Assembly: GCA_034432855.1 (NCBI GenBank)
Contig: DAOUBA010000147.1
Location: 1-61,854, forward strand
Direction of reading: 5' to 3'
Length of the DNA stretch: 61,854 bases
Source of the DNA: Anaerolineae bacterium
Lineage (GTDB): Bacteria > Chloroflexota > Anaerolineae > B4-G1
Part shown: positions 42,800 to 49,081 of the stretch, piece by piece
How positions within the stretch are numbered: position 1 is the stretch's first letter
How the letters are laid out: each line of letters starts with the position of its first letter
Position numbers and translations under genes: made by a program
Notes under the pieces: generated by a model
Told to the model about the DNA's origin: nothing
The model's input: only the letters and a program-made list of their open reading frames with translations
The model's database searches: none

Positions 42800-43126
42800 A
42801 TGGCGAACGTGCTCGAAGTGACCGACGAGACATTCGAGAGCAAGGTGCTCAAGGCCGCGCAACCGACGCTGGTGGATTTCTGGGCCGCATGGTGTGGGCC
42901 GTGCCGTATGGTCGCGCCGGTGGTCGAGGAGGTCGCCAGGGAGTACGGCGACCGGATGCAGGTGCTCAAGATGGACGTGGATGCCAATCCCAATACCCCG
43001 CAGAGTTTTGGCATCATGGGCATACCCACGCTGATCCTGTTCAAGAATGGAGCAGAGGCCACCCGCGTCGTTGGCTATCGTCCGAAAGAGGCATTGGTGG
43101 AAGAGTTGCTCCCCCACCTCGAATGA
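42800..43126 (+). CDS. trxA: thioredoxin
   Basis: 108 aa; WCGPC active site (DFWAAWCGPCRMVAP). Confidence 0.95.
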   Translation: MANVLEVTDETFESKVLKAAQPTLVDFWAAWCGPCRMVAPVVEEVAREYGDRMQVLKMDVDANPNTPQSFGIMGIPTLILFKNGAEATRVVGYRPKEALVEELLPHLE

Positions 43127-43127
43127 C

Positions 43128-43156
43128 TTGACGCCGCAGCCTCTGTGTGATATACT
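43128..43156 (+). promoter_or_regulatory. sigma70-type promoter of the T-box leader
   Basis: TTGACG-17 nt-TATACT. Confidence 0.55.
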
Positions 43157-43183
43157 GTAAACACAATCTGGAATTGAAAGACC

Positions 43184-43588
43184 GCGATTGGGAAGAGTAG
43201 GCCCCGAAGCGAGGTTCAGAGAGTCGGGCCGCAGGCTGAGTCAATCGTAGCCGCGGGTGTAAGCCCGATACCGGCGCCGGTGCCAAATGGGCCCAGGAGT
43301 CGCCCGCCGAAAGAACAACGGATCACAGGACAGCAGCGGATTGTTCGAGTAGTCCGGGCCGGAGCCGCCACCGTTATCCAGGCGGAGGGTATCATCCTGA
43401 ACCTGTCGAGGGATCGTACCCACAACGAGTGAGGCTGGCACTTCACACTCCACGCGCCGTCATCGGCGCGTTTTTCGTTCCGCTGAAGGACCGCCTAACC
43501 GGGGTGGCACCACGGGCATCGTCACGACGCTCGTCCCCGATAGGGCGAATGGACCATTCGCCCTGTTGGGACGGGCGTCTTTTGTTTC
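43184..43588 (+). promoter_or_regulatory. T-box riboswitch leader (Trp specifier inferred)
   Basis: S-turn AGAGTA 43194-43199; AG bulge AGAGAG 43218-43223; distal-loop GGTGTAA 43256-43262; specifier context AAA-TGG-G 43285-43291; F-box CCGTTA 43371-43376; T-box GGGGTGGCACCACGGG 43501-43516; terminator with T-tract. Confidence 0.75.
43526..43588 (+). terminator. intrinsic terminator of the T-box leader
   Basis: gacgctcgtccc (43526-43537) pairs with gggacgggcgtc (43568-43579), with an inner agggcgaat/attcgccct helix and then TTTTGTTT. Confidence 0.7.
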
Positions 43589-43604
43589 ACGGTGGAGGTG
43601 TGCG

Positions 43605-44321
43605 ATGCACCTGCTCAAGGTGAGAATCCTGAGCGAGAACTATCCCAACTCTCGCTACTATCCGTTCAACATCCCGGTACTCCGCGCGACGCCGGAACTG
43701 GTCTTCAGGAGGCCCATCGCCTTCTTTGTGGGCGAGAATGGTTCCGGCAAGTCCACGCTGTTGGAGGCAATCTCGCGCAGGTGTGGCGTCTATGTTTGGG
43801 ACAGACCCCGACGGCACCTGGCTCACAACAACCCTTACGAGGACCGGCTGGCGGACTATATCCGCGTGACGTGGGCCAACGGCCGTGCGCCGGGCTCGAT
43901 CTTCCGCGCCGAGACGTTCCGCGACCTGGCCGATTTTCTCGACGACGTGGCGCTGTGCGATCCGGGCCGGCTCAAGTATCACGGCGGGCGTGTGCTCAAT
44001 ACGCTCTCGCACGGCGAGGGCATCTTGAGTTATTTCAGCACCCGTTATCGTCTCAAGGGTATCTATTTCCTCGACGAGCCCGAATCTGCGCTTTCGCCCG
44101 CCAGCCAGATCGAGTTCCTGAAGATCCTGCAGCAGGCCGAAGCGGCCGGCCACGCCCAGTTCATCATCGCCACTCACTCGCCGATCCTTCTGGCCTATCC
44201 CGGCGCGCAGATTCTCAGTTTCGACGGCGATCGCATCGAGGAGGTCTCGTACGAAGAGACCGCGCACTACAAGATTTACCGGCAATTCCTGACCGACCGG
44301 AGCGCATTTTTTGAGACTTGA
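43605..44321 (+). CDS. stand-alone ABC/SMC-like P-loop ATPase (COG3910-like), function unknown
   Basis: Walker A GENGSGKSTLLEAI, signature-like LSHGEG, Walker B IYFLDEPESALSP, H-loop ATHSP. ATG 43605 follows a GGTGGAGG RBS. Confidence 0.8.
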   Translation: MHLLKVRILSENYPNSRYYPFNIPVLRATPELVFRRPIAFFVGENGSGKSTLLEAISRRCGVYVWDRPRRHLAHNNPYEDRLADYIRVTWANGRAPGSIFRAETFRDLADFLDDVALCDPGRLKYHGGRVLNTLSHGEGILSYFSTRYRLKGIYFLDEPESALSPASQIEFLKILQQAEAAGHAQFIIATHSPILLAYPGAQILSFDGDRIEEVSYEETAHYKIYRQFLTDRSAFFET

Positions 44322-44405
44322 GGCTGCAAGGAGGTATGGTATCGAGGAAGACAGAAGAATATCCCATCCATCATTTGAGAATCTAATTCACAGGAGGAAC
44401 TGGAA

Positions 44406-45770
44406 ATGACGCAGTACAAGTACATCTTGCAAGAGAAGGACATGCCCACACATTGGTACAACATCATCGCGGACATGAAGACGCCGCCACCCCCCTACCG
44501 CCACCCGGCGACGCTGGAGGTGATGGGCCCCGATGACCTGAAGCCGGTCTTTCCCTGGGAGTTGATCCTGCAGGAGGCCAGCCAGGAGCGGTGGATCGAG
44601 ATCCCCGACGAGGTGCTGGACGTGCTCAAACGCTGGCGGCCCTCGCCTCTCATCCGCGCCCATCGCTGGGAGAAGGCGCTGGATACGCCTGCCCGCATCT
44701 ACTACAAGTGGGAAGGCGTGAGCCCCGTGGGTAGTCACAAGGCCAACACCGCCGTCGCACAGTGTTACTATGGCAAGAAGGAGGGCCTGGAGGGCTTTGC
44801 CACCGAGACCGGTGCTGGTCAATGGGGCAGTGCGTTGTGCTTCGCAACCCAGCAGTTCGGCCTCAAGTGCAAGGTCTTTATGGTCGCCGCCAGTTTCCAG
44901 CAAAAGCCCTACCGGCGCATCGCTATGGAAACGTGGGGCGGCACCGTCGTGCCCAGCCCCAGTTCGGAGACCAATGCCGGGCGGAACGTCCTGGCTTCCG
45001 ATCCCGAATGTCCCGGCAGTCTGGGCATCGCCATCAGCGAGGCCATCGAGTACGCCGTGACCCATCCCGGCTACAAGTACTCGTTGGGCAGCGTGGTCAA
45101 CTTTGTGCTTATGCATCAGACCATCATCGGATTGGAAGCGCGCAAGCAGATGGAGATGGCGGGCGATTATCCTGACATCCTGATCGGCTGCGCGGGCGGT
45201 GGCAGCAACGCTGCTGGCCTGATCTATCCTTTCCTGAAGGACAAGTTGACCGGCGAAAAGCCCAACCTGCGCGCCATGTTCGTCGAATCCGCCGCCTGTC
45301 CCAGCATGACACGCGGCCCGTATGCCTACGACTGGGGCGATACGGCCAAGACCGGCCCGATCGCGATGATGCACACCCTGGGCCACGGCTTCATCCCCGC
45401 GCCCGTCCACGCCGGCGGCCTGCGCTACCACGGCATGGCGCCCACCGTCTCGCGGCTGATCGAGGACAAGTTCGCCGAGGCCCGCGCCTATCAGCAGAAC
45501 GCGGTCTTTGAGGCTGCCGAGAGTTTCATCCGCGCCGAGGGTATCATCATCGCCCCCGAAACCGCCCACGCCGTGCGCGCTGCCTACGACGAGGCGCTGG
45601 CCTGCAAAGAGTCGGGTGAGGCCAGGGTCATCCTCTTCAACTGCAGCGGCCACGGTCACTTTGACCTTGCGGCCTATGACGCCTACCATCGCAAGGAACT
45701 GCCGGATTACGAACTCGACGACGCGCAGATCAAGAAGGCACTGGAGGAATTGCCCCAAGTCGCGGCCTGA
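44406..45770 (+). CDS. trpB2: TrpB2-type tryptophan synthase beta-like PLP enzyme
   Basis: 454 aa (long form). PLP lysine context VGSHKANTA, GAGQWGSAL, GCAGGGSNAAG. The N-terminal extension is typical of TrpB2. Confidence 0.88.
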   Translation: MTQYKYILQEKDMPTHWYNIIADMKTPPPPYRHPATLEVMGPDDLKPVFPWELILQEASQERWIEIPDEVLDVLKRWRPSPLIRAHRWEKALDTPARIYYKWEGVSPVGSHKANTAVAQCYYGKKEGLEGFATETGAGQWGSALCFATQQFGLKCKVFMVAASFQQKPYRRIAMETWGGTVVPSPSSETNAGRNVLASDPECPGSLGIAISEAIEYAVTHPGYKYSLGSVVNFVLMHQTIIGLEARKQMEMAGDYPDILIGCAGGGSNAAGLIYPFLKDKLTGEKPNLRAMFVESAACPSMTRGPYAYDWGDTAKTGPIAMMHTLGHGFIPAPVHAGGLRYHGMAPTVSRLIEDKFAEARAYQQNAVFEAAESFIRAEGIIIAPETAHAVRAAYDEALACKESGEARVILFNCSGHGHFDLAAYDAYHRKELPDYELDDAQIKKALEELPQVAA

Positions 45771-45790
45771 ATCAAAGTAGCGAGTAGACA

Positions 45791-45828
45791 AGTAGACAAG
45801 GGGCGAATGACCCCTTGTCTACTTTTTA
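45791..45828 (+). terminator. intrinsic terminator built from GTAGACA phased repeat
   Basis: Perfect 13-bp stem agtagacaagggg / ccccttgtctact, 7-nt loop, T-tract. The flanks repeat gtagaca / tgtctac units (45776-45848). Confidence 0.75.
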
Positions 45829-45867
45829 CTTGTCTACTTACCTACTTCCGGGTACAATCTAGGCGGC

Positions 45868-46056
45868 ATGAAGATCATCTACCGCGACCAGGAGTGGGAG
45901 TTGCACGGGCAGCGTCGGGTGCGCGAGGCGATCCAGGAGGTCGGGCTGAACCCGCACACTGTTCTGGCCGTGCGCGAGGGCCGGCTGCTCACCGAGGACG
46001 TGATGCTGGAGGAGGATGACGAGGTCAAACTCGTCGCCGTGATCTCGGGCGGGTGA
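45868..46056 (+). CDS. ThiS/MoaD-family ubiquitin-like sulfur carrier (TtuB-like)
   Basis: 62 aa ending in VISGG, the C-terminal Gly-Gly of sulfur-carrier proteins. Confidence 0.75.
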   Translation: MKIIYRDQEWELHGQRRVREAIQEVGLNPHTVLAVREGRLLTEDVMLEEDDEVKLVAVISGG

Positions 46057-46068
46057 TGGAGGTGCGCG

Positions 46069-46644
46069 ATGCCGACACAGGCCTGGGCCGTGCTGTTGGG
46101 CGCTTACCTGTTGGGCTCGATCCCCTCTGCCTACCTGGTGGCCCGTCTCGTCGCCGGGGTGGACATCCGGCGCGTGGGCGACGGCAACATGGGGGCCAAG
46201 AACACCTTCGAGTCGGTGGGGCGGCTGGCGGGCGTCGTCGTCGGTGCTGCCGACATCGGCAAGGGAGCACTGGCCGTGGCGATGGCGCGCTACTTTGACC
46301 TGTCGGAGAACCTCGTCCTGTGGGCGGGCTTTCTCGTCGTGCTGGGCCACGATTTTCCGCTCTTTCTCCGTTTTCGCGGTGGGCAGGGGATGGCGGCGAT
46401 GGTCGGCGTTTTTGGCGTACTCTTCCCGTATGAGATGGGGATCGTACTCTTGACGCTGGCCGTCGCTCTGGCGCTCACCCACAACTGGGACCTCAGTTGC
46501 GGGATCGCCTTCGGGATGCTGCCTGTCTTGTTGATCCTCTTCGGCCATCCGACCAGGCAGGTGCTCTATCCGGTGCTGATGCTGCCCACCATCGGGGCCA
46601 AGAAACTGTTGGCGGTCTGGCAGGCGCGGCATGCGGCGGTGTGA
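46069..46644 (+). CDS. plsY: glycerol-3-phosphate acyltransferase PlsY
   Basis: YLLGSIPSAYLV, GDGNMGAKN, DIGKGALAV, LGHDFPLFLRFRGGQG. Confidence 0.9.
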   Translation: MPTQAWAVLLGAYLLGSIPSAYLVARLVAGVDIRRVGDGNMGAKNTFESVGRLAGVVVGAADIGKGALAVAMARYFDLSENLVLWAGFLVVLGHDFPLFLRFRGGQGMAAMVGVFGVLFPYEMGIVLLTLAVALALTHNWDLSCGIAFGMLPVLLILFGHPTRQVLYPVLMLPTIGAKKLLAVWQARHAAV

Positions 46645-47018
46645 TGGAGCAAGGTGAAATGGCGAAAGACACTCAGTCTACCTGTTATTGGTGGCCGATT
46701 ACAGAGACCAGGATTCGCCAGGCTGTCCAGAAGATCGCCGATGCGGTACAGCCCGAAAAAATCATCCTGTTTGGCTCCTTCGCCTATGGTCAACCGGGAC
46801 CGGATAGCGATGTAGATCTGCTAGTGATCATGGAAAGCGAGAAAAGCATTCACGCCCGCTCGGTACAGATCTCGGAGATTCTCTACCCCCGCCCATTTCC
46901 GGTGGACATCATCGTGCGCACGCCGGCAGAAGTGGCGGAACGTATTGCACTGGGCGATACTTTCTTCCGCGAGGTTATGGCGAAAGGCAAGGTGCTCTAT
47001 GAACGCCAGGGTGATTGA
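46644..47018 (+). CDS. minimal nucleotidyltransferase (MNT) of an MNT-HEPN pair
   Basis: ILFGSFAYGQPGPDSDVDLLV (GS-x10-DxD). ATG overlaps the plsY TGA. Confidence 0.8.
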   Translation: MEQGEMAKDTQSTCYWWPITETRIRQAVQKIADAVQPEKIILFGSFAYGQPGPDSDVDLLVIMESEKSIHARSVQISEILYPRPFPVDIIVRTPAEVAERIALGDTFFREVMAKGKVLYERQGD

Positions 47019-47391
47019 GGAATGGGTCAAAGAGGCAGAAGACAATTACCTCAGTGCCCTTACCCTGGCGCGTCGGCGTCGCAGGCCTGTGCCGGATGTC
47101 GTCTGCAATCAATGCCAGCAATGCGCCGAGAAGTATTTGAAAGCGTTGCTGGTCCGGCATCAGTTGGATTTTCCGAAGGTGCACGATCTGGTGCAACTCG
47201 AAGAGTTGGTCGCGCAGGCGGAGCCAGATATTCGGCTGATCCATGCAGATCTGGCGATGCTCAATCCGTATGGGATTGACATCCGCTATCCGGGCCTCGA
47301 GGCCACACTCGAAGAAGCGCGAGAAGCCATACGGGCAGTCAAACAAGTTCGCCGATTCGTGCGCGCCAGGCTGGGATTGGGTGCGAGATGA
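46999..47391 (+). CDS. HEPN-domain protein
   Basis: About 130 aa, helical, with an R-x4-6-H-type motif context (LLVRHQLDFPKVHDL). Overlaps the MNT gene by 20 nt, and its stop overlaps the ttuA ATG. Confidence 0.75.
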   Translation: MNARVIEEWVKEAEDNYLSALTLARRRRRPVPDVVCNQCQQCAEKYLKALLVRHQLDFPKVHDLVQLEELVAQAEPDIRLIHADLAMLNPYGIDIRYPGLEATLEEAREAIRAVKQVRRFVRARLGLGAR

Positions 47392-48293
47392 AATGTCGTC
47401 ACTGTGCTCGCCCTGCCGTGCTCAACATGCGCCAGCACAGGCTGGCGCTCTGCGAAATCCACTACCCCGAGTGGTTCGTCGCCCGCACCCAGCGCACTAT
47501 CCAGAAATACGCCATGTTCGGCTACGAGGAGCGCGTGCTGGTGGCGGTCTCCGGCGGCAAAGATAGCCTCAGCCTGTGGGATGTGCTCCTGCGCCTGGGC
47601 CACCGTGCCGACGGCCTCTACATTGACCTGGGGATCACCGACTATTCCGCCATCTCGCGCCAGAAGGTCGAGCAGTTTGCAGCGCAGCGTGCCGGGGCGG
47701 GCCTCACCATCGTAGACCTCAAAGCTGAGTATGGCGAGACGCTGCCGGAGACAACACGGCGGATACGGCATGGGCGCGAGAGGCCCTGTTCCGTCTGTGG
47801 CACGATCAAACGGCACGTGATGAATCGTGTGGCCCGTGACGGGGGGTATACGACACTGGCCACCGGCCACAATCTGGACGACGAGGCGGCGGTGCTTTTC
47901 GGCAACGTCCTCCATTGGCAGACGGGCTATATTGCCCGTCAGGCGCCGGTGTTGCCTGCCGAACATGAGGGATTCGTCCGCAAGGTCAAGCCTTTTTGCC
48001 GCCTGTACGAGCGCGAGACCGCCGCATACGCCCTCATCACCGGCATTGACTACATCTACGACGAGTGCCCCTACGCCGTCGGCGCTTCCAGCATCTATTA
48101 CAAGGGTATCCTCGACCGGATGGAGGAGGAAGCGCCGGGTACCAAGTTACAGTTCTACCTGGGCTTTCTGCGGGCGCGGGAAGCGGGGTTTTTCCGCCAG
48201 GAGGTCGAACAGGTGGAACTGCACCCCTGCACCAACTGCGGCCAGCCGACGAGCGCGCCGGGGCTGTGCGCGTTCTGCCGGCTGTGGGTATGA
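47388..48293 (+). CDS. ttuA: PP-loop tRNA 2-thiolation enzyme, TtuA-like (tRNA-5-methyluridine54 2-sulfurtransferase)
   Basis: N-terminal CxxC...C..H and C-terminal CTNCG...CAFC zinc fingers, PP-loop VAVSGGKDS, ATGHNLDDEAAVLFGN. Confidence 0.78.
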   Translation: MKCRHCARPAVLNMRQHRLALCEIHYPEWFVARTQRTIQKYAMFGYEERVLVAVSGGKDSLSLWDVLLRLGHRADGLYIDLGITDYSAISRQKVEQFAAQRAGAGLTIVDLKAEYGETLPETTRRIRHGRERPCSVCGTIKRHVMNRVARDGGYTTLATGHNLDDEAAVLFGNVLHWQTGYIARQAPVLPAEHEGFVRKVKPFCRLYERETAAYALITGIDYIYDECPYAVGASSIYYKGILDRMEEEAPGTKLQFYLGFLRAREAGFFRQEVEQVELHPCTNCGQPTSAPGLCAFCRLWV

Positions 48294-48982: not shown

Positions 48983-49081
48983 GGGGGTGGTTGGGGCCCG
49001 GTGGCCTCCTCGGTCTTCAAAACCGCTGGCGGGCCGCGCCGAGCGGGCCGCGGTGGGTTCGACTCCCATCCACTCCCGCCA
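48983..49081 (+). tRNA. selC: tRNA-Sec (anticodon TCA)
   Basis: 99 nt. 8-bp acceptor stem (GGGGGTGG/CCACTCCC), 6-bp D-stem with CGGT loop, anticodon loop CTTCAAA, long variable arm, 5-bp T-stem with GGTTCGACTCC, discriminator G and an encoded CCA. The anticodon stem has only 4 clean pairs. Confidence 0.78.

Follow-up and report, generated by a model that had tools for sequence, protein, structure and literature searches.

The window analysed here is a stretch of 61,854 nucleotides from an Anaerolineae bacterium (contig DAOUBA010000147.1), and this report concerns a T-box leader on its + strand together with the two genes that follow it, which encode a stand-alone ATPase of the ATP-binding cassette (ABC) type and TrpB2, a TrpB-like pyridoxal phosphate (PLP) enzyme. 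All features of this transcription unit lie on the + strand. A sigma-70 type promoter at 43128-43156 (TTGACG and TATACT separated by 17 nt, with an extended -10 TG) matches the consensus at 10 of 12 positions and begins 2 nt past the stop codon of a thioredoxin gene. The same hexamers occur at the same relative position in the related loci L001 and L061, so this promoter is conserved. The T-box leader (43175-43541) runs into an intrinsic terminator (43526-43587), and only 17 nt, holding nothing but the ribosome-binding site (RBS) GGAGG (43594-43598), separate the U-tract of the terminator from the ATG of the ATPase gene (43605-44321; 238 amino acids, AAA_21/AAA_15 type). An 84-nt spacer (44322-44405) with the RBS AGGAGG (44392-44397) and no terminator leads to trpB2 (44406-45770; 454 amino acids), and a terminator scan located a 14-bp stem at 45790-45824 followed by a T-run (45790-45833 in total), which is the only strong terminator downstream of the leader. 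The gene features listed in a preliminary description of this DNA, namely the ATPase motifs GENGSGKST, LSHGEG and DEPESALSP, the 84-nt spacer, TrpB2 and the operon terminator, were all found. The trpB2 product scores 689.3 bits with NF009057 (cutoff 366) and 602.4 bits with TIGR01415 (cutoff 518.85), as compared with 136.5 bits for the canonical TrpB model TIGR00263 (cutoff 392), and with its equivalog match above cutoff, its PALP fold (118.6 bits) and a length of about 450 residues including an N-terminal extension it belongs to TrpB2.

Every T-box part named in the preliminary description sits where it had been placed. Stem I (43180-43301; helices 1-5 with 26 pairs, 13 compensatory) contains the S-turn GGGAAGAGUAGG (43190-43201), the AG bulge CAGAGAG (43217-43223) and the distal loop GGGUGUAAG (43255-43263), the last with a 19-nt insertion specific to the window. 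The covariance model (CM) alignment places the 7-nt 3' side of the specifier loop, AAA-UGG-G, at 43285-43291, and in the context AAA-UGG-G-CCCAG (43285-43296) the tryptophan codon UGG (43288-43290) is followed by a purine and then by the closing helix. Stem II (43303-43358, with GAGUAG at 43347-43352; helices 6-7 with 9 pairs, 7 compensatory) is followed by the remainder of the Stem IIA/B region (within 43303-43376), which ends in the invariant F-box CCGUUA (43371-43376). Between the F-box and Stem III lies an extra conserved hairpin (43387-43421; helix 8 with 10 pairs, 5 compensatory, 99% paired) that is outside the Rfam consensus, and within an insertion of Stem III there is a GC-rich 8-bp hairpin, ACGCGCCGUCAUCGGCGCGU followed by UUUUU (43452-43476; helix 9, 3 compensatory pairs). 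The T-box sequence GGGGUGGCACCACGGG (43501-43516) carries the UGGC bulge at 43505-43508. From the CM alignment and the pairing read from the sequence, the antiterminator (43500-43539) consists of CGGGG/CCCCG, the 7-nt bulge UGGCACC and ACGGG/CUCGU. The intrinsic terminator has a 12-bp outer helix (43526-43537 with 43568-43579) and an inner palindrome, followed by UUUUGUUU; it is the dominant element of the minimum free energy (MFE) fold of the leader, and its helix 10 is 96% paired. As the 3' arm of the antiterminator (43530-43539) overlaps the 5' arm of the terminator (43526-43537), the two structures are mutually exclusive.

In a permissive Rfam scan of 43100-43640, the T-box model RF00230 (gathering score 93 bits) matched 43175-43541 over model positions 1-219, that is in full length, with 53.5 bits, below the gathering score, and E=6e-11, the next best family reaching only E=0.054. 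An Rfam scan of the whole window at default settings reported no T-box, and a tRNA-Sec was its sole match. Orthologous leaders from related loci gave 65.7-120.1 bits with RF00230; those of L038 (120.1 bits) and L059 (107.1 bits) exceed the gathering score, and those of L050 (91.7), L051 (90.6), L058, L001, L061 and L003 stay below it owing to insertions. The MFE fold of the window leader was better than those of 100 out of 100 shuffled sequences (z = -3.7). Covariation was evaluated in 11 non-identical orthologous leaders (alignment A3), counting pairs on the RNAalifold helices. Standard pairs occupied 95.6% of the cells, whereas column shuffling gave 86.4% and sliding the partners 35-43%, and changes on both sides were found in 30 of 65 pairs where 11.8 were expected, a value reached by none of 500 shuffles; no shuffle (0/500) matched the leaders on any pairing measure. 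In all 11 leaders GGUGGCACC and UGGC are invariant, and RAA-UGG-R-CC is present with an invariant UGG. From the CM match, the covariation, the invariant UGG and UGGC and the two orthologues above the gathering score, it is evident that this is a genuine tryptophan-specific T-box of the transcription-termination type, with specifier, bulge and antiterminator/terminator competition all present as first proposed, and we are highly confident that the RNA works as a tRNA-Trp-specific transcription-attenuating T-box.

The specifier loop AAAUGGG also includes an overlapping AUG (43287-43289), one base before UGG, and reading this or another codon would make the leader a sensor of a different tRNA. 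The canonical geometry of codon, one purine and closing helix gives UGG. The helix closing the loop (43188-43192 with 43292-43296) covaries, with U-A in the window and C-G in most relatives, which fixes the register of the loop and hence the codon, and the covariance model arrives at the same UGG at 43288-43290 that the preliminary description had drawn. Relatives read GAAUGGR, the operon genes are trpS (the tryptophanyl-tRNA synthetase gene, in relatives) and trpB2, and the UGGC bulge, predicted to pair with a 3' GCCA end, implies a discriminator G. Bacterial tRNA-Trp carries G73 as discriminator, and initiator and elongator tRNA-Met carry A73. A specifier other than UGG is thus extremely improbable.

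Inspection of the transcription unit for other signals revealed one weak promoter-like site at 44311-44340 (9 of 12 consensus positions) that is not conserved in relatives, and in the equivalent ATPase-trpB2 spacers of L001 and L061 no promoter or terminator site was detected on the + strand. The proposed lack of a terminator between the two genes thus stands, and the check for internal promoters in the window, L001 and L061 found neither a conserved internal promoter nor a conserved terminator. In relatives with long spacers, no second regulatory RNA or T-box was found before trpB2. Judged from these sequences, leader, ATPase gene and trpB2 are likely to be co-transcribed.

Thirty loci of the Anaerolineae clade were compared and their upstream sides sorted into classes. 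The order T-box-trpS-ATPase-trpB2 with a full trpS is found in L051, L053, L058, L059 and L061, the gene identity being given by TIGR00233 (282 bits) and PF00579, and the gap between a full trpS and the ATPase gene amounts to 12-61 nt. L055 has trpS-ATPase-trpB2 without a detectable T-box, its upstream region of about 600 nt (1332-1928) being unrelated sequence, and in L046, L054 and L056 the contig starts within the 3' end of trpS immediately before the ATPase gene, so that 9 related loci have a full trpS or a contig-edge trpS 3' end at this position. In L058 the trpS slot (1455-2561) is filled by a TrpRS that is only 35% identical to the others. L050 retains a frameshifted trpS pseudogene (526-1192) lacking residues 1-106. 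In L003, L004, L047 and L048, T-box and terminator are followed by about 180 nt, a 40-residue TrpRS N-terminus and the ATPase gene, and this stub (L003 3849-3971; also in the other three) has kept its HIGH motif intact and is preceded by an RBS of its own. The T-box stands directly before the ATPase gene without any trpS remnant in the window, L045, L001, L002, L038, L039 and L049. Neither the 40-residue stub nor two full TrpRS queries detected a remnant of trpS in the window, and the case for a deletion there is accordingly drawn from its relatives.

When the ATPases were arranged in a neighbour-joining (NJ) tree, loci that have trpS and loci that lack it fell among one another, and trpS is present in L059, which branches off deepest. 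The simplest reading of this pattern is an ancestral arrangement T-box-trpS-ATPase-trpB2 followed by repeated loss of trpS. The locus series, from full trpS through replaced trpS, pseudogene and 40-residue stub to clean deletion, can be lined up as a stepwise path along which a synthetase T-box ends up in control of genes other than synthetase genes. As far as such comparisons of sequence can tell the direction of change, trpS has very probably been lost repeatedly and the window descends by clean deletion from a trpS T-box operon, a deletion by which the ATPase gene would have become the first regulated gene. The preliminary description had stressed that the first regulated gene is no tRNA synthetase; this is true of the window, but it is a secondary, derived deletion state of a trpS T-box operon. 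The idea that the T-box heads a new kind of regulon does not hold, as the 9 related loci have trpS there and two more lineages have trpS debris. The decay series is a caution against taking the first gene after a T-box for its primary target.

Taken together, the locus is best understood, with a probability of roughly 75%, as a canonical tRNA-Trp T-box, an orthologue of the trpS switch, that now heads an ATPase-trpB2 operon. From what is observed directly, namely the RNA anatomy, the covariation, the gene identities and the comparative architectures, we infer tRNA-dependent read-through along the following lines. RNA polymerase would start at the promoter at 43128-43156, and Stem I would offer UGG (43288-43290) to the CCA anticodon of tRNA-Trp, in addition to a contact of the distal platform. 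When tRNA-Trp is uncharged, its free 3' NCCA end would pair with UGGC (43505-43508) and stabilise the antiterminator (43500-43539), which would block the terminator (43526-43587) and permit read-through into the ATPase gene (43605-44321) and trpB2 (44406-45770) up to the terminator at 45790. In relatives that retain trpS, this gene would be transcribed in the same unit. TrpB2 enzymes are described, in a passage of PMC11917138 that cites Hettwer and Sterner (2002) and Busch et al. (2014), as having high affinity for indole and using O-phospho-L-serine, and in the light of these properties the operon looks like a response to tryptophan limitation in which TrpRS would raise charging, TrpB2 would salvage indole and the ATPase would be co-expressed.

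Some observations weigh against this reading. The score of the window leader (53.5 bits) is below the gathering score and the lowest of the leader set, which we attribute to large insertions relative to RF00230: the distal loop of Stem I is longer by 35 nt, Stem II by about 30 nt and Stem III by 51 nt, and a further stretch of about 40 nt follows the F-box. A search for a tRNA-Trp gene whose discriminator base could be set against the bulge came up empty, both in the window and at 14 related loci. The ATPase tree is a simple NJ tree on 238 residues. The hairpin at 43452-43476 with its U-run, which lies about 25 nt 5' of the T-box sequence and is kept in all 11 leaders, was flagged as terminator-like by the terminator scan in the window and in L061 (1591-1610), and it would pre-empt the switch if it were an efficient terminator, since termination upstream of the T-box sequence would be beyond the control of the antiterminator. 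Polymerase may be programmed to pause at this hairpin, or the hairpin may belong to Stem III as the distal portion of an extended helix.

The loss of the usual target trpS, the lowest Rfam score of the set with the 19-nt insertion in distal Stem I, and the weak promoter-like site at 44311-44340 could also be taken to mean that the T-box of the window is a decaying relic and that ATPase gene and trpB2 are expressed from a promoter of their own, independently of tRNA-Trp. However, all functional elements of the leader are intact, the specifier, the bulge and both mutually exclusive helices included, the substitutions that the window carries are compensatory, as with U-A in the closing helix of the specifier loop, and the full leader has been kept in five independent trpS-less lineages, among them L038 with 120 bits. 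The 17 nt between U-tract and ATG, with the RBS among them, leave no room for a promoter, and the weak internal site is not conserved. A relic is accordingly considered very unlikely, and a functional leader heading the ATPase-trpB2 operon is preferred.

RNAalifold additionally pairs GCCACC of the Stem IIA/B region (43364-43371) with GGUGGC of the T-box (43503-43508; A3 columns 229-252/428-450), a predicted pairing that would mask the binding site for the tRNA acceptor end. As all columns involved are invariant, covariation provides no evidence either way, and this long-range pairing was left out of the model. Leaders of this insertion-rich lineage mostly score 53-92 bits, that is below 93, and annotation at the curated threshold of Rfam misses such leaders; automated annotation of Anaerolineae genomes therefore probably passes over these T-boxes.

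The ATPase itself matches the Pfam families AAA_21 (62.5 bits, cutoff 27) and AAA_15 (47.9 bits, cutoff 32.1). With ABC_tran (PF00005) it reaches 23.4 bits (cutoff 25), only the P-loop being aligned, SMC_N also remains below threshold, and among the NCBIfam models no specific one matched. Walker A, a signature-like motif, Walker B (DEPE) and H-loop are arranged in an ABC-ATPase fold, as is characteristic for AAA_21/AAA_15 proteins, and the residues N45, K49, S50, S135, D157, E158, P159, E160, Q185 and H191 are invariant in the family. An AlphaFold2 model built from a 40-sequence alignment (predicted local distance difference test score, pLDDT, 92.6; predicted template-modelling score, pTM, 0.89) was compared with the Protein Data Bank (PDB) by Foldseek, and only the generic ABC-ATPase fold was recovered, the best E-value belonging to the ATPase domain of an OLD nuclease (6p74). 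In a PDB sequence search, NCBIfam and PADLOC, matches covered no more than the P-loop or the segment with Walker B and H-loop. The protein has no nuclease domain and no coiled coil, and no membrane partner was seen at the surveyed loci. Sequence and model suggest that it is a soluble ABC-type ATPase of the AAA_21/OLD-like branch that probably dimerises. If we were to guess, it would be an accessory factor that forms dimers, runs on ATP and acts on a protein or nucleic-acid partner, and would be neither a transporter subunit nor a defence ATPase.

A role as nucleotide-binding subunit of an ABC or energy-coupling factor (ECF)-type importer for tryptophan or indole, with membrane parts encoded elsewhere and induced together with TrpB2, would suit the size of the protein and the Foldseek matches with ECF/ABC transporter subunits (TMq 0.45-0.56), and some database records name relatives 'ABC transporter ATP-binding protein'. 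Tryptophan T-boxes also control transporters such as trpXYZ (PMC3766115 supplement). However, the ABC_tran score falls short of its cutoff while AAA_21 and AAA_15 pass theirs, the signature is LSHGE and not LSGGQ, no gene for a permease or S-component recurs beside the ATPase gene at about 70 loci, and the top fold match by E-value is the OLD nuclease ATPase domain, all of which makes an importer subunit unlikely.

Assignment as ATPase of a defence system was rejected. NCBIfam defence models gave 35.8 (cutoff 300) and 33.4 (cutoff 500), with only motif-level matches over 45-75 residues, and the gene is flanked by trpS or the T-box upstream and by trpB2 downstream, with no nuclease or effector. 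The protein shares with the OLD and defence ATPases GajA, PtuA, AriA and MADS3 the Walker A GxNGSGKS, the Walker B DEPE, the THSP H-loop and the ABC fold, but the matches cover only about 50-75 residues, it has no Toprim or nuclease domain, partner gene or coiled-coil insertion, and it is encoded in a housekeeping operon, with 70-90% identity across many Anaerolineae. In the case of ABC/ECF nucleotide-binding subunits, length and core fold (TMq 0.45-0.56) are similar, but the ATPase is set apart by its sub-cutoff ABC_tran score, its atypical signature and the lack of a nearby membrane partner. A serine kinase providing O-phosphoserine for TrpB2 was also considered and set aside as a leading idea, as the complete set of ABC signature, D-loop and H-loop is the sequence pattern expected of a dimerising mechanical ATPase and not of a kinase for small molecules.

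How far the connection of the ATPase with TrpB2 extends was evaluated in gene neighbourhoods. Homologues from Anaerolineae form more than 120 clusters at 76-88% identity, and among the 30 loci fetched, TrpB2 follows the ATPase in every one that reaches far enough downstream. The pair is kept at ATPase identities of 57-100% while the flanking genes vary. The wider family comprises 208 clusters at 50% identity (E<=1e-30) and ranges over Desulfobacterota, Firmicutes, Bacteroidota, Acidobacteriota, Gemmatimonadota, Proteobacteria, Planctomycetota, Spirochaetota and methanogens. Outside the Anaerolineae clade, 31 reference-genome loci with ATPases of 22-52% identity had no TrpB2 within 5 kb and no adjoining T-box motif, and likewise neither TrpB2 nor a T-box was found near the ATPase gene in L041, L043, L044, L060, L062, L067, L069 and L071. 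When 92 neighbour proteins from 24 loci were analysed, 117 Pfam families were matched, none of them more than 3 times. The preliminary description had linked the orphan ATPase family as such to tryptophan limitation; the neighbourhood survey limits this link to one Anaerolineae sub-clade and one Spirochaete sub-lineage.

The Spirochaete case was detected in L040, a metagenome-assembled genome of Spirochaetota whose ATPase is 54% identical to that of the window and whose ATPase gene is divergent from a two-gene operon encoding a TrpR-like protein (PF01371, 68.7 bits) and a TrpB2 that is 55% identical to that of the window; no T-box is present in L040. L065 and L066 repeat the layout, with an ATPase sharing 68% identity with that of L040. 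In a bootstrapped NJ tree, the tryptophan-linked ATPases of Anaerolineae were monophyletic in 92 of 100 replicates, the linked Spirochaete pair grouped with the unlinked Spirochaete L067 in 85 of 100, and joint monophyly of the two linked groups was never obtained (0/100). Judging by this tree, the ATPase and TrpB2 genes seem to have come together on two separate occasions, each time with a different regulator that responds to tryptophan, and no other observation speaks as strongly for a functional connection between the two proteins. In the Spirochaete intergenic regions (L040 3842-4000, L065 2106-2270) a palindrome, ATTCTATCAATAGAAT, is conserved near the start of the trpR-like gene, as are back-to-back TTGACA boxes, and the palindrome is a candidate operator.

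On the negative side, the conserved ATPase-trpB2 synteny among Anaerolineae may in part reflect shared descent. At about 40 family loci outside both linked lineages there is no trp context, no T-box and no recurrent neighbour. A shared TrpR operator over the Spirochaete ATPase promoter was considered and rejected, as the palindrome is situated towards the trpR-like gene, clear of the -35 box of the ATPase gene, so the Spirochaete loci display adjacency only, not co-regulation.

The ATPase gene could have been inserted once beside trpS and trpB2 in an ancestor of the Anaerolineae and been inherited as a passenger without any role in tryptophan metabolism, its induction under tryptophan limitation being a mere by-product. 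The wider family, without trp association or conserved neighbourhood, is in keeping with this, as are the unrelated contexts of the closest outgroup L041, the Anaerolineae locus L069, the Spirochaete L067 and the archaeal L071, and neither fold nor motifs give a clue towards tryptophan. On the other hand, the pair has outlasted repeated trpS deletion, exchange of TrpRS for one of 35% identity in L058, the disappearance of the T-box in L055 and a turnover of the flanking genes; the independent Spirochaete adjacency has been kept between ATPases that are only 68% identical; and trpS-ATPase gaps of 12-13 nt suggest coupled expression. A passenger, induced as a by-product, is a serious possibility that we rate somewhat below even odds. 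Because the pair persists through repeated rearrangements and was assembled again in Spirochaetes, the gene neighbourhoods would give an even chance that the ATPase acts in the context of TrpB2, that is in tryptophan salvage from indole under tryptophan limitation. More tentatively, and with doubt prevailing, this ATPase sub-group might be a dedicated partner of TrpB2, recruited at least two times and needed either for tryptophan salvage by TrpB2 or when uncharged tRNA-Trp has to be dealt with. It might, for instance, activate or assemble TrpB2, provide or handle its substrate O-phosphoserine or indole, or act together with TrpRS. If true, such a partnership would give a physiological context both to the orphan ATPase family and to the enigmatic stand-alone TrpB2. 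The trpS-ATPase-trpB2 and TrpR-trpB2/ATPase neighbourhoods are a testable guilt-by-association lead for TrpB2 and for an ATPase family present in many phyla.

An analogy is offered by rtpA-ycbK of Bacillus subtilis, which encodes anti-TRAP and where Sarsero and colleagues reportedly described, in 2000 (cited in PMC2494555), a tryptophan T-box before genes then without known function. There too the first gene is said to be neither a synthetase nor a biosynthetic gene and to have been tied to tryptophan physiology later, but anti-TRAP is a small zinc-binding regulator without relation in sequence or fold to the ATPase. With the tryptophan T-boxes of trpS genes, such as that of B. subtilis and that listed for Herpetosiphon aurantiacus among the Chloroflexi regulons of PMC3766115, the leader of the window shares the UGG specifier, the UGGN bulge and the antiterminator/terminator competition, and in most relatives of the window trpS is likewise the first gene. 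It differs in that the window lacks trpS and in the insertions of the leader, namely the hairpin at 43387-43421 and the long Stem III with its terminator-like hairpin. That a tryptophan T-box may precede trpB-like or trpB2 genes is already known. One has been described before a trpB-like gene in Dehalococcoides (PMC2494555), and others are listed for trpB of Chloroflexus and for trpB2 of Streptococcus gordonii and S. sanguinis (PMC3766115 supplement). These cases resemble the present one in having a stand-alone TrpB or TrpB2 under control of tRNA-Trp, also within the Chloroflexota, but there the trpB-type gene alone is listed, whereas here the ATPase gene always stands between T-box or trpS and trpB2. 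Merkl (2007) detected no second conserved gene neighbourhood for trpB2 (PMC1854888), and a full-text literature search returned nothing tying T-boxes to Anaerolineae or to COG3910-type ATPases. New are the conserved trpS-ATPase-trpB2 operon, its decay series and the twice-evolved ATPase-TrpB2 neighbourhood; the RNA itself is an ordinary, if divergent, member of its family.

The operon is flanked by the thioredoxin gene upstream and by a ThiS-like gene, plsY, an MNT/HEPN pair and ttuA downstream. The ThiS-like gene (45868-46056) encodes a ThiS/SAMP2-like small sulfur carrier and ttuA (47388-48293) a TtuA-type tRNA 2-thiouridine synthetase, and this synteny is kept in L001 and L003. Ahead of the ThiS-like gene, the window, L001 and L061 have a promoter-like site (TTGTCT/TTGCCA/TTGCCT ... 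TACAAT). The two genes are adjacent in L001 and L003, and in the window they are separated by an insert of about 1.3 kb (46069-47391) that contains plsY (G3P_acyltransf) and an NTP_transf_2/HEPN pair of the kind typical of toxin-antitoxin modules. Further downstream, at 48983-49081, there is a tRNA-Sec gene (Rfam 66.3 bits; anticodon TCA according to ARAGORN), from which it follows that the organism probably uses selenocysteine.

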